From an uncultured Roseburia sp. (lineage in GTDB: Bacteria > Bacillota > Clostridia > Lachnospirales > Lachnospiraceae), in contig CAMXSH010000004.1 in NCBI GenBank assembly GCA_947246475.1, forward strand, positions 26,701 through 90,700: a DNA stretch of 64,000 nt, read 5' to 3'. Position 1 is the stretch's first letter. Each line of letters starts with the position of its first letter. This document shows, piece by piece, positions 54,084 through 60,666 of the stretch. The notes below the pieces were generated by a model, which was given only the letters and a program-made list of their open reading frames with translations, was not told the origin of the DNA and did not search any database. The translations under genes and the position numbers were made by a program.

Positions 54084-54428
54084 GGGCTTGTACTGGTTTC
54101 GACAGGCCGGCTGAAGATGGAGAAGCTATCCGTGGGCTGTGACCACGTTAAAACGCAGAAAAAATTAAACGCTGACGATAATAGATTAGCATACGCAGCC
54201 TAAGTGCTGCTGTCTGACCTGGAGCACCTACACTCTGGGAGCCAGGCATCAATGATGTAGGAAACGACGTATATTAAGCTTTGCGTATACGGGCGTATCA
54301 TGAAGCTACTAAAGCCTGAAGGATGTTCATTTCCGTCAGGTGGAGGGAATGTAAAAGAATGAACTATGATAGTAGAAGTACATGGGATTCCGGTTTGGAC
54401 GCGGGTTCGATTCCCGCCAGGTCCACCA
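54084..54428 (+). ncRNA. ssrA: tmRNA; tag peptide (A)DDNRLAYAA encoded at 54171-54203
   Basis: 5' GGGCTTGTACTGGTTTCGAC pairs with 3' CAGGTCCACCA including a G.U pair; T-arm GCGGGTTCGATTCCCGC; internal ORF GCT GAC GAT AAT AGA TTA GCA TAC GCA GCC TAA. Confidence 0.97.
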
Positions 54429-56118
54429 GAAAGTTCTTACTCCAACCCTTACCAAAAAAATTTAATAAGCGGTTGGGTATTGTGGATAGGAAGCTCGTGA
54501 GCATTTGCTCACGAGCTTCTGCGTTCTCTGCAGTATTATATTTAGCAACCTCATCTTTGATCGGTTCTACCAGCATCGTAAATGGTTCAGCAAACTCTGC
54601 TGTCACTTTTCCGTCGGAACCAATCAGCAGGCGTTCAAAGATAGCCTGGTTCATTAGCTTCTTCATCTTATCATTTGCCAAACGGTAGGTCATGCCACAG
54701 TCAGTAATCAGTTCAATGGCATCGTCCAGTCGTTCTATAATCGTGGTAAACGTATAGTCATATGCTTTGGTCTGATGATCGATTGTGGCAAGCTGCTTAG
54801 CGATTTTCTGTTGTTCACTTTTAAGTAGGTCAAGTGGGATGGCATCGTTGTAATGTGCCTCAAGCAGTTTCTTACGCTGCCTCTCCAGCTTATCTTTCTC
54901 CCGGCGCAGCCCGTCTAACTCGGTTTCGTATTTATCACGTTCTTTTTCTATATTCTGCCTCAGCCAGTCTTCCAGATAACTGGCTATTTGGGGAGGGAAA
55001 GAATATCGGTCATAAATCTGTTCCACTTGCCGCTCGACATCCGCAATCAATACCGCCCGCTGTTTACAGTCCGTACGTTTGCTATGCCGTCCCCCGCAGA
55101 CAAAATACGGATAGCGGATGCCGGTATGGGATTTGGTATAGTTGACAATCATCCGTGCCCCACAGTTTTTACAGAAAACACTGCCCTTTAAGAAATGAGG
55201 GTGTTCACGGGTGCGCTCGCCGTTGATATGCGATTCCAGAATATCCTGCACCTGCTGCCAGGTGTCGGCATCTGTCAGTGCCGGGTGTGTCCCCTCATAT
55301 TCTGCGCCTTGGTATGACACAATGCCCTTGTAATAAGGATTTATCAGTATCTTGTTCAAGGATTTTTTGTTGATGGGCTGGGATGGGATTCTGGGCGTGG
55401 CACGGGTAGTCAGACCGCAGGCTGCCAGATGTTCTGCCAAATCCTGTACCGTCCAGTTGCCGGTGGCATATTCCTCAAATGCCAGCTTAATCAATGGGGC
55501 GCGCTCTTCATCCAGTATGACTGTCCGTTCCTCCCGTCCCTTATCGTCTGTACGCCGGATATTGAGGTAGCCAAGCGGAGCACGGCTGGGCGTCCCTCCT
55601 CCTTTAACTTTCTCGTTCAGGCCCTTTTTAACTTCGTTTGCCAGATTTTGTGAGTAAAACTCGGCGATGGAACTCATAATGCCATGCAGCAGCATTCCGG
55701 CAGGGGTATCATCTATGCTTTCTGAAGCTGATACCAGCTGGATGCCGCATTCACGCAATGTGCGCATAATGTCAACGTCATCACCGCGGTTGCGTGCGAG
55801 ACGGTCGACCTTATGTACAATCACGTAATCAATCCTGTCGGCATTTTCTTTGACATATTCCAGCATTTTCTGGAGTTCCGGGCGGTCTGCCGATTTGGCG
55901 GAAGTACCCCGGTCAACAAATTCCTTGCCAACCATTGCGCCCATGGAGAGTGCTTTTTTCTTGTTCGCTTCTCTCTGCGCAGGAATAGAGAACCCCTCAT
56001 CTGCACCGCCGCCACGTTCTGCCTGTCCGCGCGTAGAAACCCGGAGGTATGATACGGCAAACTTCGGTGTCATGGCATCGGTCAGTGACTGCATGGGGTT
56101 AGCTGTAGTGTATTCCAT
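54364..56118 (-). CDS. Large serine recombinase (integrase)
   Basis: YLRVST catalytic Ser motif, KVDRLARN, AEFYSQNLANEVKKG, recombinase domain (APLGY, NPYYKG), zinc ribbon CKNCG...C...C and a coiled coil. Confidence 0.95.
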   Translation of the reverse strand: MEYTTANPMQSLTDAMTPKFAVSYLRVSTRGQAERGGGADEGFSIPAQREANKKKALSMGAMVGKEFVDRGTSAKSADRPELQKMLEYVKENADRIDYVIVHKVDRLARNRGDDVDIMRTLRECGIQLVSASESIDDTPAGMLLHGIMSSIAEFYSQNLANEVKKGLNEKVKGGGTPSRAPLGYLNIRRTDDKGREERTVILDEERAPLIKLAFEEYATGNWTVQDLAEHLAACGLTTRATPRIPSQPINKKSLNKILINPYYKGIVSYQGAEYEGTHPALTDADTWQQVQDILESHINGERTREHPHFLKGSVFCKNCGARMIVNYTKSHTGIRYPYFVCGGRHSKRTDCKQRAVLIADVERQVEQIYDRYSFPPQIASYLEDWLRQNIEKERDKYETELDGLRREKDKLERQRKKLLEAHYNDAIPLDLLKSEQQKIAKQLATIDHQTKAYDYTFTTIIERLDDAIELITDCGMTYRLANDKMKKLMNQAIFERLLIGSDGKVTAEFAEPFTMLVEPIKDEVAKYNTAENAEAREQMLTSFLSTIPNRLLNFFGKGWSKNFLVDLAGIEPASKPESHVLLLS

Positions 56119-56261: not shown

Positions 56262-56356
56262 GGTATATATTACAGCGTTTTCTGCCTTAATTAAGGTACT
56301 GGCGGGAAGATTATAACTTCCGCATTTGTTTCACGATATACTGATTGGAAAAATGA

Positions 56357-57205
56357 TTATTTGCCATAATCTTTACCGCATTCGTTTTCTATGGATTCTT
56401 CCGCCTCTTCGCCTACTGGAACAGTAACAGATTCTGTAGGTTCGGAACTCGCCACGCCTTCTGCCAACCGTTCTGGCTGATGGCCAGACTTCCAGCTGCT
56501 GTTGCCGCTTAGGTTTCGGAGCAGGATTTTCCGGGCAGATTTGTATTCGTCCCCGATAAATCCCAGACGGATGAGGAATAAACGCATCTCATATTTGGCA
56601 TTCTCCACCAGCTTTTCTGTGGCAGTAACCCGTCTCTGTGTCTTTGCCATGCGGCAGATGGCGGCAACCAGACGGCTGTATGCGTCAGCTTCGCCCTCCA
56701 AACCCTGCCTGGTAAACCATGGGAAAGAGATTTTTCCATCGGCTTCCTTAATATCTAAGGTTTCTGTTTTGAGGGCTTGCTTTAGCAGTGTCTCCTTACT
56801 GGCGATAATCTTTAGCAGATTCTCCCTTGCCAGCGGGGTAAACCCAGTATCCGGGACTGTGATAATCAGCTTGTCTGGCTGCTTTGGAATTGTTCCAGTA
56901 TCTGCCGATGCCTCCCCAGAGCTGCTGTTTGCTGTGACATCTTCCTCTGCCGTGTTTTCTGCCGCTGCATCTTCCGCCACAAAGCCTTGCTCTTGCAATG
57001 CCCTGATTAGGTTATTGGTAGTTTCCGAATTGGTTTCTTCCGGCAGCGTCAGAACACCTGCCCGGTCAATATGGCAGCCGCCTACGATGTAGGCAAAGCT
57101 GGGTGCTCCCTGATACACAGCAGGGGAATTTACTATTTGGCTGACAGCCTCCACCAACGGTTTTCTGTCGCTGCCGGTAAGTTTGTAATGGTATTGGAAG
57201 TTCAT
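56357..57205 (-). CDS. Uncharacterised mobile-element protein (often labelled 'virulence protein') sharing a C-terminal domain with the amidoligase
   Basis: AAAGGAGG RBS before ATG 57205. GxDRKxLV...YxGAPSFAY...SFPWF...RLGFIGDEYK pattern recalled from Firmicute elements; no catalytic motif recognised. Confidence 0.75.
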   Translation of the reverse strand: MNFQYHYKLTGSDRKPLVEAVSQIVNSPAVYQGAPSFAYIVGGCHIDRAGVLTLPEETNSETTNNLIRALQEQGFVAEDAAAENTAEEDVTANSSSGEASADTGTIPKQPDKLIITVPDTGFTPLARENLLKIIASKETLLKQALKTETLDIKEADGKISFPWFTRQGLEGEADAYSRLVAAICRMAKTQRRVTATEKLVENAKYEMRLFLIRLGFIGDEYKSARKILLRNLSGNSSWKSGHQPERLAEGVASSEPTESVTVPVGEEAEESIENECGKDYGK

Positions 57206-57296
57206 GTTTCCTCCTTTCTTCCACACACATCTATCACTCAGACTGCCAAAAACAGCAAGCCTTGATTTTATTTGGAGATGTGCGGGAATATCCGGG

Positions 57297-57485
57297 TTAT
57301 TCATCGGCTGTGGCTCTGCCGGTCAGAATAAAATTGGCATATTCTTTCCGGTGTTCTTCCAGATAAATAACCAGCTCATAGTAGCCTTCACGGTTGGCAA
57401 TATACTGCACCATGTTTGCATCAAACATATTCGTTTCCCCGGCTGCCCGGATGGCGAGAATCTGCTCTTTCACGGTTTCTGTCAT
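57297..57485 (-). CDS. DUF5049-like small protein (62 aa)
   Basis: VKEQILAIR...TNMFD...YELVIYLEEHRKEYANFILTG; GGAGG RBS before ATG 57485. Confidence 0.75.
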   Translation of the reverse strand: MTETVKEQILAIRAAGETNMFDANMVQYIANREGYYELVIYLEEHRKEYANFILTGRATADE

Positions 57486-57984
57486 GGGAATTACCTCCTC
57501 CCCGGTATTTTTCTGCCAGATATGTCTCCCACACAGAGTCAAGGACAGCCTGGCGCAGCACTCCGGTGTCAAAACCAGAGGATTCGTAGCCCTGCCGGAT
57601 CGTTTCAAAATAGCTTCGGGATGGCGTATCATAGGGATGGTGCGCCTCATTCATAATGTAGACCATGGCGCTCATCCGTCTGCGGTTTACCGTTATCCTT
57701 AACATTTCTTTGCGGTAGAGGTGGGGATAGCCTTCATACATATCCAGGCTTCGCTCATCACCGGGCTGCAGCCGCCAGATCAATACTGGCACCTGGCTGC
57801 CCTCATGTTTTTCTACCGTTGCCACGGCAGTGTTTTTGCCGTGGAACATCAGCCGCCAGTTGCGGAGAAATGTTGTTCCCACAATTTCCGCAGTGGGGCA
57901 GCGCCTTGCCATCTGTTCGATGTTGAGGTTAGAACCGTAGGCAATATAGAATCTGTCTCTAGCTGGATTATTATTTTTACTCAT
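57421..57984 (-). CDS. Gamma-glutamylcyclotransferase (AIG2/GGCT-like)
   Basis: YIAYGSNLN..QM..RCP and LDMYEGYPHLY (catalytic Glu) motifs; coupled to the amidoligase stop codon. Confidence 0.88.
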   Translation of the reverse strand: MSKNNNPARDRFYIAYGSNLNIEQMARRCPTAEIVGTTFLRNWRLMFHGKNTAVATVEKHEGSQVPVLIWRLQPGDERSLDMYEGYPHLYRKEMLRITVNRRRMSAMVYIMNEAHHPYDTPSRSYFETIRQGYESSGFDTGVLRQAVLDSVWETYLAEKYRGGGNSHDRNRERADSRHPGSRGNEYV

Positions 57985-58937
57985 AGGTTTCGTCCTCCAT
58001 TCTCAGTATTTCTGATGCCTATATGGCTTCTGACATTTTCCCTTGAACCATACCGCCAGGCGGCATTGCCGTCTAAATGCTGGTATAGATGTTCCCGGCA
58101 ACTCTTAAACTCGTCACCGATAAACCCGATGCGGTTCAGCCACACGCGCATGGCAAACTTCTCATTTTCCTCCTGCACTTTCCGGCTGCTGGCGCTTTTC
58201 TGCGTCAACGCCTGATGGTTCAGGGCGAGTGCCAGCACAATGTAGGCACGGATTTTCCCGGCATGCAGTGTCCCGTTAAACCCTCTCAGCTCAACAGTAT
58301 GGTTGCCATGGAAAAAGCTGTGTAGGTTGAGGAAGTAGTAACGGCTGCTGTTGTAGTGGCTGTTACGGTTTCCAGGATACTTCTCATACCAGATACTCTC
58401 AATCTGCTCAAAGGTTGTCGGTTTCTCCCTGTTCATCCGTTCCACGAGGTAGGCATCCATCTTTTTACAGTAACGCATCCGCTCCGGTGCAATCTGCAGT
58501 GCTTTATAAAGCAGGTCATTGTGTGCATAAATGATGTTAATAAAGTTGCGAATACTCCTCGGCGTATGGTCTGCCCCGTTCAGGTGGATGTGGATGCCGC
58601 AGGATTTGTTTGCAAACCCACCGGCTTTGCGCAGACGCCTTGCCAGCGCCTGCACCGTGCCGATATCCTCCTGGTAGAGCAGGATGGGGCTGACCAGCTC
58701 CACGCTGAAATGGTCGTCCGCACCGATGGTGTGGTTTCCGTTTTTGCGCTGGCAGTGAATGCTGCCGTCAGACATAAACTTCCATATGCGCCCGTCAGAC
58801 GCAGTGACTTTTTGGGTATTATAGTAATCCCCTGGGGCGGCGGTTGTGCCGTCCAGGTAATTTGCAGCGGTTTCCGCTGCCTTTTCCCGGGTAATCCCGG
58901 TAAACTCGGCTTCAATGCCGAACTGGTTGGTAAACAT
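57981..58937 (-). CDS. Putative amidoligase (COOH-NH2 ligase, Amidoligase_2-like)
   Basis: FGIEAEFTG, WKFMSDGSI, VELVSPIL, SCGIHIH, SRYYFLN and TVELRGFNGTL motifs; AAGGAGG RBS before ATG 58937. Confidence 0.88.
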   Translation of the reverse strand: MFTNQFGIEAEFTGITREKAAETAANYLDGTTAAPGDYYNTQKVTASDGRIWKFMSDGSIHCQRKNGNHTIGADDHFSVELVSPILLYQEDIGTVQALARRLRKAGGFANKSCGIHIHLNGADHTPRSIRNFINIIYAHNDLLYKALQIAPERMRYCKKMDAYLVERMNREKPTTFEQIESIWYEKYPGNRNSHYNSSRYYFLNLHSFFHGNHTVELRGFNGTLHAGKIRAYIVLALALNHQALTQKSASSRKVQEENEKFAMRVWLNRIGFIGDEFKSCREHLYQHLDGNAAWRYGSRENVRSHIGIRNTENGGRNL

Positions 58938-59169: not shown

Positions 59170-59394
59170 CTATGACATGATATCCCCCTTATTTTCTGCC
59201 GGCAGATACCCGGCCAAAGCGGTTTTTGCCAGGGATGCCGTCTCTTTGTTCGTTTCTTTCTCTTTCGCATTCTCGATTGCAATAGCAATAAGCGCCCTCC
59301 CAATCTTTTCTATATCAGGGTGTTCCCGAAAGTCTGGTGTAACCCTTACATTATGAGCAGATGACGGCCGTCCACGTTTTCTTTTATTGTTCAT
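59170..59394 (-). CDS. Small basic-then-helical protein (74 aa), possible DNA-binding protein
   Basis: ATG overlaps the MTase TGA; KRKRGRPS AT-hook-like segment followed by an amphipathic helix (PDIEKIGRALIAIAI). Confidence 0.6.
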   Translation of the reverse strand: MNNKRKRGRPSSAHNVRVTPDFREHPDIEKIGRALIAIAIENAKEKETNKETASLAKTALAGYLPAENKGDIMS

Positions 59395-60563
59395 GCTGCC
59401 TCCTTTTCTGCCCCGGCGGCTGCATTTTCCAGCCATACGGCTTTAAGGCGCAGGCCAAGGGCGTGTATCACATTGACGGTTACGGCATTGCCAGCCTGTT
59501 TATATGCCTGAGTATCAGAAGTCACAGCCAGCAGTTTATCAATCTGCTTATCAGAAAACCCCTGCAGCCGCAGGCATTCTTTCGGGGTAAGGCGCCGGAT
59601 CCGCATATCCGTGTCCACAACCGCCTTATCGGCATGCGTGGTCAGGGTGTAGGAAATGCCATGCCCTACACGTGCGCGTTTTTGGTTCTGGCTGACATAG
59701 GAAGTGTCGACAGAATCGCCGGGTTTCGCCTCACTGTATCCCCGCCTGGTGGCCTCTTTGATGAGGAGGACGCCATCGCGTGCCTGCCCGCTGCCAAGCC
59801 CTTTGGCATAGCTGGCAGTAAGGGTGCGGGCGGACTCCCGGGTATCCGAGATGCCGTCCCGGCTGCTGCAGCTTACGAGATACAGCCCGGTTTTCCCGCC
59901 ACCTCCCCCGGAACTGGCGAGCTGGGTGCAGGCTACGCCGCTGGGGTCGTAGACTCTTGCCCCCTGCGCCCCGCCGACGATCTGTATAAGAGCTTTTCCA
60001 TCTGTTCCCGGGAGAGGAAGTATTTTTCCGGCACATTTTGGATCAAGATATCCGACAATGTAGACCCGTTTCCGTGACTGCGGGACTCCAAAACTCTTGC
60101 TGTTAAGCACCTGCCATTCCACACCATACCCAAGTTCTGATAGCGTGCCAAGGATGGCTGTAAATGTCCGTCCTTCGTCATGGCTGAGCAGTCCGGGAAC
60201 GTTTTCAAGTATAAAAAACGCAGGGTGTTTGGCTTTAAGGATACGCGCGATGTCAAAAAAGAGCGTGCCTCTCGCATCCTGGAAACCACAGCGTTTTCCG
60301 GCAATGGAGAAACTCTGGCAGGGGAATCCTGCGCAGAGCAGGTCAAAGTCCGGCATTTCTTCTGCTTTGATGGTTGTTGCGTCTTCATAGTAGGTTTCCT
60401 TTGGGTTAATGTGATACATATTCCGGTATGCCTTGTCGGCATGCGTGTCAATCTCGGAGTGGCCGATGCAGGCAAAGCCCCCGGCTCGCTCCAGGCCGGC
60501 ACGGAATCCCCCGATACCGGCAAACATATCGAAAAAACGAATATTCTTTATGTTCATGGGCAT
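59391..60563 (-). CDS. DNA (cytosine-5) methyltransferase
   Basis: Motifs I (FAGIGG), IV (GFPCQSFS), VI (LENVPG), VIII (PQSRKRVYIVG), IX (RRLTPKECLRLQGF) and X (YKQAGNAV). Confidence 0.96.
   Translation of the reverse strand: MPMNIKNIRFFDMFAGIGGFRAGLERAGGFACIGHSEIDTHADKAYRNMYHINPKETYYEDATTIKAEEMPDFDLLCAGFPCQSFSIAGKRCGFQDARGTLFFDIARILKAKHPAFFILENVPGLLSHDEGRTFTAILGTLSELGYGVEWQVLNSKSFGVPQSRKRVYIVGYLDPKCAGKILPLPGTDGKALIQIVGGAQGARVYDPSGVACTQLASSGGGGGKTGLYLVSCSSRDGISDTRESARTLTASYAKGLGSGQARDGVLLIKEATRRGYSEAKPGDSVDTSYVSQNQKRARVGHGISYTLTTHADKAVVDTDMRIRRLTPKECLRLQGFSDKQIDKLLAVTSDTQAYKQAGNAVTVNVIHALGLRLKAVWLENAAAGAEKEAA
59933..60523 (-). other. Stop-free +1 overlapping frame inside the MTase gene (possible second polypeptide)
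   Basis: 196-aa ORF with an internal ATG at 60277; contains TLSDILIQNVPEKYFLS. Translation is unproven. Confidence 0.4.
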
Positions 60564-60666
60564 TCTTCCTTTCTTAGAATTACTAAAACAGTTACAGTAA
60601 CAGTTTGTCATCTCCAGACCCTTAGCACAGCTAAGGCTGGCAGGGCAGGGTAAACTGGCAAATTTG

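Follow-up and report, generated by a model that had tools for sequence, protein, structure and literature searches.

Within the window analysed here, a 64,000-nucleotide stretch of DNA from an uncultured Roseburia sp. (contig CAMXSH010000004.1), an Amidoligase_2 ligase and a protein of 282 amino acids (AA), hereafter the partner, are encoded on the minus strand and end in closely similar C-terminal segments. We concluded, with considerable confidence, that the partner is a shortened, internally deleted and catalytically dead paralogue of the adjacent ligase, and that the C-terminal extension carried by both would be a binding surface; the segment is shared because one protein is a dead copy of its neighbour. 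The parts of the two proteins are as follows, in window coordinates, with the scores of AlphaFold2 (AF2) models given as the predicted local distance difference test (pLDDT).

57981..58937, minus strand: amidoligase of 318 AA, Amidoligase_2 (PF12224, E 1.6e-71); a longer open reading frame (ORF) runs to 59018
58038..58268, minus strand: helical C-terminal extension of the ligase (residues 224-300), mostly outside the Pfam model, holding a stretch of 41 residues (41-mer) at 58047-58169
56357..57205, minus strand: partner, 282 AA, 'virulence-related protein' in phage records
56966..57205, minus strand: N-terminal domain of the partner (residues 1-80), beta-alpha-beta4-alpha, AF2 pLDDT 83-94
56873..56965, minus strand: variable acidic linker of the partner (residues 81-111), column identity 0.45, variable in length, pLDDT <50
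56705..56872, minus strand: middle region of the partner (residues 112-167), homologous to the HxH strand of the ligase, the next two helices and the ELR strand
56474..56704, minus strand: C-terminal helical segment of the partner (residues 168-244), hhalign P 6.6e-19 against the ligase, holding the 41-mer at 56483-56605
56360..56473, minus strand: disordered acidic tail of the partner, ending in GKDYGK, a variant of GGxxYGK

The true start of the partner is M34 of a 315 AA ORF, an ATG at 57205 with AAAGGAGG ahead of it and a product of 282 AA, and the cluster of ligase homologues begins at the Met of the 318 AA form.

The partner 41-mer (56605-56483) and the ligase 41-mer (58169-58047) are both exact translations of the window DNA and align without gaps with 22 of 41 residues identical, just as an earlier note on this DNA had reported; none of 100,000 shuffles of the 41-mer reached 22 identities, the best reaching 11. 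The upstream extension of the similarity seen in the same note ('A..TQ') lies inside the single ungapped BLASTP alignment of the full ORFs, which covers 71 residues (partner ORF residues 204-274 against ligase ORF residues 254-324) with 30/71 identical and an E value of 1e-15. When the whole host genome was searched with the partner, only two copies of the segment were found, the partner itself and the C-terminus of the ligase. Nothing but the closeness of the two genes favours an origin of the similarity by chance, low complexity or recent gene conversion between neighbours, and we give this explanation virtually no weight and count it as already refuted: to the BLASTP E value and the shuffles are added a nucleotide identity of 59% between the 41-mers, with the same codon at 8 of the 22 identical residues, so that the divergence of the two segments must be old, and a variant of the segment that is fixed separately in each family across thousands of homologues. 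Gene conversion between the partner and ligase genes was ruled out by codon usage.

The similarity reaches beyond the upstream end of the segment. When profiles built from 57 partner homologues and 58 ligase homologues were compared, partner residues 112-244 aligned with ligase residues 114-300 at 98.7-98.8% probability, and in a local profile run with 120 homologues of each the alignment widened to partner 8-244 against ligase 11-300. In piecewise hhalign comparisons, for which off-register controls gave P values of 0.12-0.98, the C segment matched the ligase at P 6.6e-19 and the middle region at P 9e-5, with P 1.7e-7 for the middle region against a bridging family described below. Without its C segment (residues 1-165) the partner matched that family at P 2.8e-5, and the bridging family matched the ligase at 1e-33. 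The N-terminal domain aligned collinearly with ligase residues 1-110 at P 8e-4 (0.007 against the bridging family), and collinear homology upstream of the segment probably reaches the N-terminus of the partner. The order of strands and helices is likewise collinear in the AF2 models of the two proteins, and PHROG 2443, 'amidoligase enzyme', matched both the ligase (E 6.7e-92) and the partner (E 2.6e-49) over the same span of its profile. Since homology runs upstream of the segment, the partner is best read as a degenerate copy of the ligase and not as an unrelated carrier; the dedicated module on an otherwise separate protein that the earlier note proposed is at odds with the match of the middle region.

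The ligase matched PF12224 at 241.5 bits (cut-off 22), and the best Foldseek matches of its AF2 model (pLDDT 80) were the YbdK structures 1r8g and 1tt4 (prob 1.0, E 1e-4), followed by glutamine synthetases. The model thus predicts the carboxylate-amine ligase fold of the glutamine synthetase (GS)/GCS2 type. Across 58 homologues, residues E9, E11, E80, H116 and H118 were invariant and E216 and R218 were conserved in at least 90%. These seven were taken as catalytic on two grounds: they vary little or not at all, and they suit the known layout of the GS/GCS2 fold. The ligase is presumed to be active, as their conservation would predict. Members of the ligase family also carry an NGG near the C-terminus. 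In the partner, E9 is replaced by H or N, E11 by K or N, H116 by I, H118 by T, E216 by S and R218 by P, and E80 is deleted, so that all seven of the conserved polar positions examined are replaced or gone. The partner also lacks a ligase insert of ~55 residues bearing R199, N204 and H206, and its acidic linker occupies the place of the E80 strand region. That the partner lacks every catalytic motif of the ligase, as had been claimed from the sequence, agrees with what we found at the seven positions, and the loss of these residues makes a non-catalytic partner, also proposed earlier, the expected outcome. No Pfam family, PF12224 included, matched the partner at E<=10, and neither the partner nor its pieces matched NCBIfam.

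The bridging family, proteins of 268-286 AA found in the genome survey (L011 3009-3833 (-), L012 2019-2870 (+) and L013-L017), connects the two forms. Its N-terminal half matches PF12224 above the cut-off; against the ligase hidden Markov model (HMM) the family scores ~1e-20 over positions 4-160 and ~1e-16 over 213-296, and its C-terminal half matches the partner HMM at ~1e-24. In the joint alignment, the bridging family and the partner have in common the deletion of approximately ligase residues 161-213 and a derived strand, ISFP(Y/W)F, which replaces TVELRGF of the ligase. The bridging proteins keep an E-x-D, lack E80, HxH, the insert and ELR, and are probably a second kind of shortened, dead amidoligase. 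In 5/7 loci a gamma-glutamyl cyclotransferase (GGCT) gene directly follows the bridging gene and no active ligase lies nearby, and in L011 an active ligase and two GGCT genes come after the bridging gene.

Several points weigh against a dead paralogue. The homology of the N-terminal domain to the ligase, at the two P values given above, is weak and only suggestive. The catalytic residues were assigned from their invariance in the family and from what is generally known of the GS/GCS2 fold, not from a solved Amidoligase_2 structure, and a PDB sequence search with the ligase family profile gave no match. Beyond residues 1-80 the AF2 model of the partner is poor (pLDDT 57), and a Foldseek search with this model, reliable for residues 1-80 only, returned nothing significant from the PDB or BFVD.

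In both families no stretch is more conserved than the 41-mer, whose mean column identity is 0.94 for the partner and 0.95 for the ligase, compared with 0.77-0.84 for the N-terminal parts of the two proteins and 0.89 for the whole C segment of the partner (residues 168-244). In active and dead copies alike, purifying selection on the C-terminal extension is stronger than on the catalytic domain, and the constraint on the segment is very strong. The segment is equally conserved in partners from loci that have no ligase, which counts against a purely ligase-binding role. The extension is restricted to one clade, the GGCT-paired ligases of Firmicute mobile elements and phages; the amidoligase of Arthrobacter phage Salgado, whose neighbour is a glutamine amidotransferase, has no C segment, and in the ligase of Faecalibacterium phage Taranis the segment is divergent and shortened.

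A profile of the C segment matched 2,708 clusters at 50% identity (E<=0.001; 1.84 billion representatives). The best 150 of the 2,708 matches were nearly all partners, ligases or fragments of them, along with a few fusions to an Enc34 single-stranded DNA-binding protein (SSB), HTH_3, an S-adenosylmethionine (SAM) methyltransferase, PriCT_1 and DUF5049. Each of these fusions was seen in one sequence only, on a contig 0.7-3 kb long, and they are for this reason probably assembly chimeras or one-off recombinants; we do not regard the segment as promiscuous.

The genes around the ligase and the partner are as follows.

59391..60611, minus strand: C5 cytosine DNA methyltransferase (PF00145, E 2.8e-81), upstream of the gene module
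between the C5 methylase and the amidoligase, minus strand: orf88, an ORF of 88 AA
57421..57984, minus strand: GGCT-like (AIG2/GGACT) gene (PF06094, E 1.4e-12; phrog_2520, E 2.7e-43), its start (57984) overlapping the ligase stop
57297..57485, minus strand: DUF5049 small protein of 62 AA (PF16468, E 2.6e-30); an equal 62 AA gene is called in relatives
56311..56367, minus strand: DUF4314 remnant of 18 codons (MANNHFSNQYIVKQMRKL, then a stop), overlapping the partner stop
54364..56118, minus strand: large serine recombinase at the end of the mobile element, with Resolvase, Recombinase and Zn_ribbon_recom domains

No terminator-like sites were found on the minus strand between ligase and partner. 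Relatives encode an intact DUF4314 protein of 76 AA (MANSRFPD...) from the same overlap with the partner stop; the window element has lost DUF4314, and nearly all relatives keep it in that overlapping position. Farther upstream of the module lie genes for a Replic_Relax protein and a VirD4-like coupling protein, and just past the end of the window there is an MT-A70 methylase (E 3e-28; L041 1081-1761 (-)). From these neighbours we take the module to be cargo of a small mobilisable island, which appears to end ~2.5 kb beyond the window and to be ~12 kb long. The island holds two orphan DNA methylases (C5 and MT-A70). PADLOC defence-system models gave no match to the ligase, GGCT, DUF5049, partner or orf88.

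The association of the two genes was surveyed in 401 genomes of the same order, counted per genome, with the partner N-terminal domain and a strong ligase match as the criteria. Among the matches listed, the partner was present in 42 genomes and the ligase in 48; both genes occurred in 18, the partner only in 24 and the ligase only in 30 (odds ratio 8.2, Fisher P 5e-8). By locus, again among the matches listed, a ligase lay within 3 kb of the partner in at least 15 of 54 partner loci, 39/54 partner loci were without a ligase, and the C segment was present in at least 45 of 56 ligase loci. In the phage collection the N-terminal part of the partner was found in 27 records, the catalytic part of the ligase in 67 and both in 13, with 14/27 partner records lacking the ligase. 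Where the genes are adjacent, two arrangements recur: type A, with methylase, partner, DUF4314, ligase, GGCT and sometimes DUF5049, and type B, seen in the window and in L005-L008, with methylase, orf88, ligase, GGCT, DUF5049, partner and DUF4314. A Ca. Heliusvirales phage holds the complete type A set, and L001-L004, elements of the same type as the window's, have DUF5049, partner and DUF4314 and neither ligase nor GGCT. Wherever a ligase was called in the loci surveyed, a GGCT gene comes next after it, DUF4314 usually or nearly always follows the partner in the loci examined, and an order of methylase then partner, or methylase then ligase, recurs in relatives and phages.

The linkage of partner and ligase is thus real but optional. 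The idea that the two form one system stands insofar as they are linked, by the odds ratio and by adjacency in two gene orders, and falls short insofar as the partner is often alone; an absence of co-occurrence, named in advance as evidence to the contrary, was not what the 401 genomes gave, and the partner as an obligate, dedicated ligase subunit is contradicted by the 24/42 genomes, 39/54 loci and 14/27 phage records in which it has no ligase. The same data bear on the model of the earlier note, in which the segment is an autonomous module of ~41 AA in otherwise unrelated proteins and makes the partner an obligate non-catalytic subunit, adaptor or decoy of the ligase. The extreme conservation of the segment in both families, the two adjacent gene orders with their odds ratio of 8.2, and the segment's low pLDDT in models of the monomers, which would fit folding upon a partner, all speak for it. 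We nevertheless consider it unlikely, given that homology extends upstream of the segment, that the segment is still conserved in the many partners without a ligase, that 30/48 genomes with a ligase had no match to the partner N-terminal domain among the matches listed, and that the survey of carrier architectures proposed in that note found carriers of other domains, among the best 150 of 2,708, only as singletons on contigs <3 kb.

That the partner recurs directly behind genes for DNA methylases, both in mobile elements and in phages, suggests another role for the segment, as a nucleic-acid-binding element of the helix-hairpin-helix (HhH) kind or an element docking on transfer machinery, which would guide both proteins to incoming or packaged DNA. 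Such docking would account for the constant DNA methylase, ParB-like nuclease and terminase neighbours, and the LGFIGDEYKTARKIL stretch of the segment, which we take to be superficially HhH-like, may be counted in its favour. We judged this very unlikely. The segment matched neither HhH nor any other Pfam family at E<=10, its profile found no PDB sequence at E<=10, the Ala that follows the G-I-G turn lies two residues farther from it than in HhH, and the SSB, HTH, methylase and PriCT fusions that might have pointed to DNA are unreplicated singletons.

Returning to the dead paralogue, the C-terminal extension would serve as a surface for binding, be it in oligomerisation or to a macromolecular target common to both proteins, and the partner, itself non-catalytic, may be a binder, an adaptor or a competitor. 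It could play this part beside the ligase-GGCT pair or without that pair, as where phages carry it next to DNA methylases; it is probably a non-catalytic binding protein and not an obligate ligase subunit. The ligase-GGCT pair itself is the presumed writer and eraser of a gamma-glutamyl-type amide bond. This write/erase role comes from what is known of the families.

A bolder version, which we regard as speculative and unlikely, would make the dead paralogue the primary and more widespread effector. The highly conserved helical hairpin of its C segment would bind a specific macromolecule of the host or the element at establishment or packaging. Where present, the ligase-GGCT pair (or a bridging dead ligase with its GGCT) would reach that target by means of the same hairpin and reversibly gamma-glutamylate it. 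If so, the hairpin would be the shared targeting device of a protein-tagging system of phages and mobile elements, possibly directed at a host defence factor or a DNA-associated one.

The tail of the partner offered a further candidate. The C-terminal motif GGxxYGK, at 56360-56380 (-) in the window, occurs in 81/120 close partner homologues (P0017-P0122 among those carrying the tail) and is absent from the broader family. A general role as a Pup-like substrate site of the ligase was rejected; the motif is confined to the subclade of the window, is present in L001, which has no ligase, and is absent from most ligase-adjacent partners. At the other end of the protein, homologues P0246, P0277 and P0323 have 2-3 tandem N-terminal domains ahead of the middle region and C segment.

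With respect to known systems, the window ligase is a clear member of the Amidoligase_2/GGCT group, by its E value of 1.6e-71, its predicted YbdK/GS-like fold and the GGCT gene next to it. The pairing of Amidoligase_2 with AIG2/GGCT in Firmicute phages and mobile elements was reportedly predicted computationally by Iyer, Abhiman, Burroughs and Aravind in Mol Biosyst in 2009. A passage of PMC11318856 cites Iyer et al. 2009 for the description of amidoligase-AIG2/GGCT. The partner, unlike Amidoligase_2 (PF12224), goes undetected by the Pfam model and has lost the conserved polar residues, and the amidoligase of the Arthrobacter phage differs from the window ligase in having no C-terminal extension and a glutamine amidotransferase in place of the GGCT. 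PHROG 2443 resembles our grouping in that it takes in both window proteins, and in Pharokka-annotated phages both genes are accordingly labelled 'amidoligase enzyme', but it merges active and dead forms under the name of an enzyme; our literature search found no paper stating that the second gene, the partner, is a catalytically dead paralogue.

Full-length homologues of the partner, 31-40% identical to it over 85% of its length, appear as 'virulence-related proteins' in Erysipelothrix phage phi1605 and in the Javan prophages of Streptococcus. They likewise stand after a DNA methylase, but these phages, unlike the window, have neither ligase nor GGCT. Javan630 (L038) and phi1605 (L039) have a conserved run of helicase, SAM synthetase, adenine methylase, partner, small ORFs and terminase, which hints at a link to DNA methylation or packaging and not to virulence; no functional test behind the 'virulence-related protein' label was found in the literature. 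The S-adenosylmethionine decarboxylase (AdoMetDC)/prozyme heterodimer, in which an enzyme is joined by a dead paralogue, is similar, as an analogy only, in placing an inactive paralogue with retained non-catalytic surfaces beside an active enzyme, and differs in that our partner is often alone.

The partner family comprises >4,000 homologues at 90% clustering with no domain assignment, in phages of gut Bacillota (including Ca. Heliusvirales), streptococcal prophages and mobilisable islands. The pair in the window is an ordinary member of this widespread and poorly annotated family and does not amount to a new type of system. In PHROGs the partner already stands among the amidoligases. Its reading as a dead paralogue, neither virulence factor nor active enzyme, corrects 'virulence-related protein' as well as 'amidoligase enzyme', both of them misleading, and the hairpin, being the most constrained part of active and dead proteins alike, is the obvious handle for finding the target of the ligase-GGCT pair.

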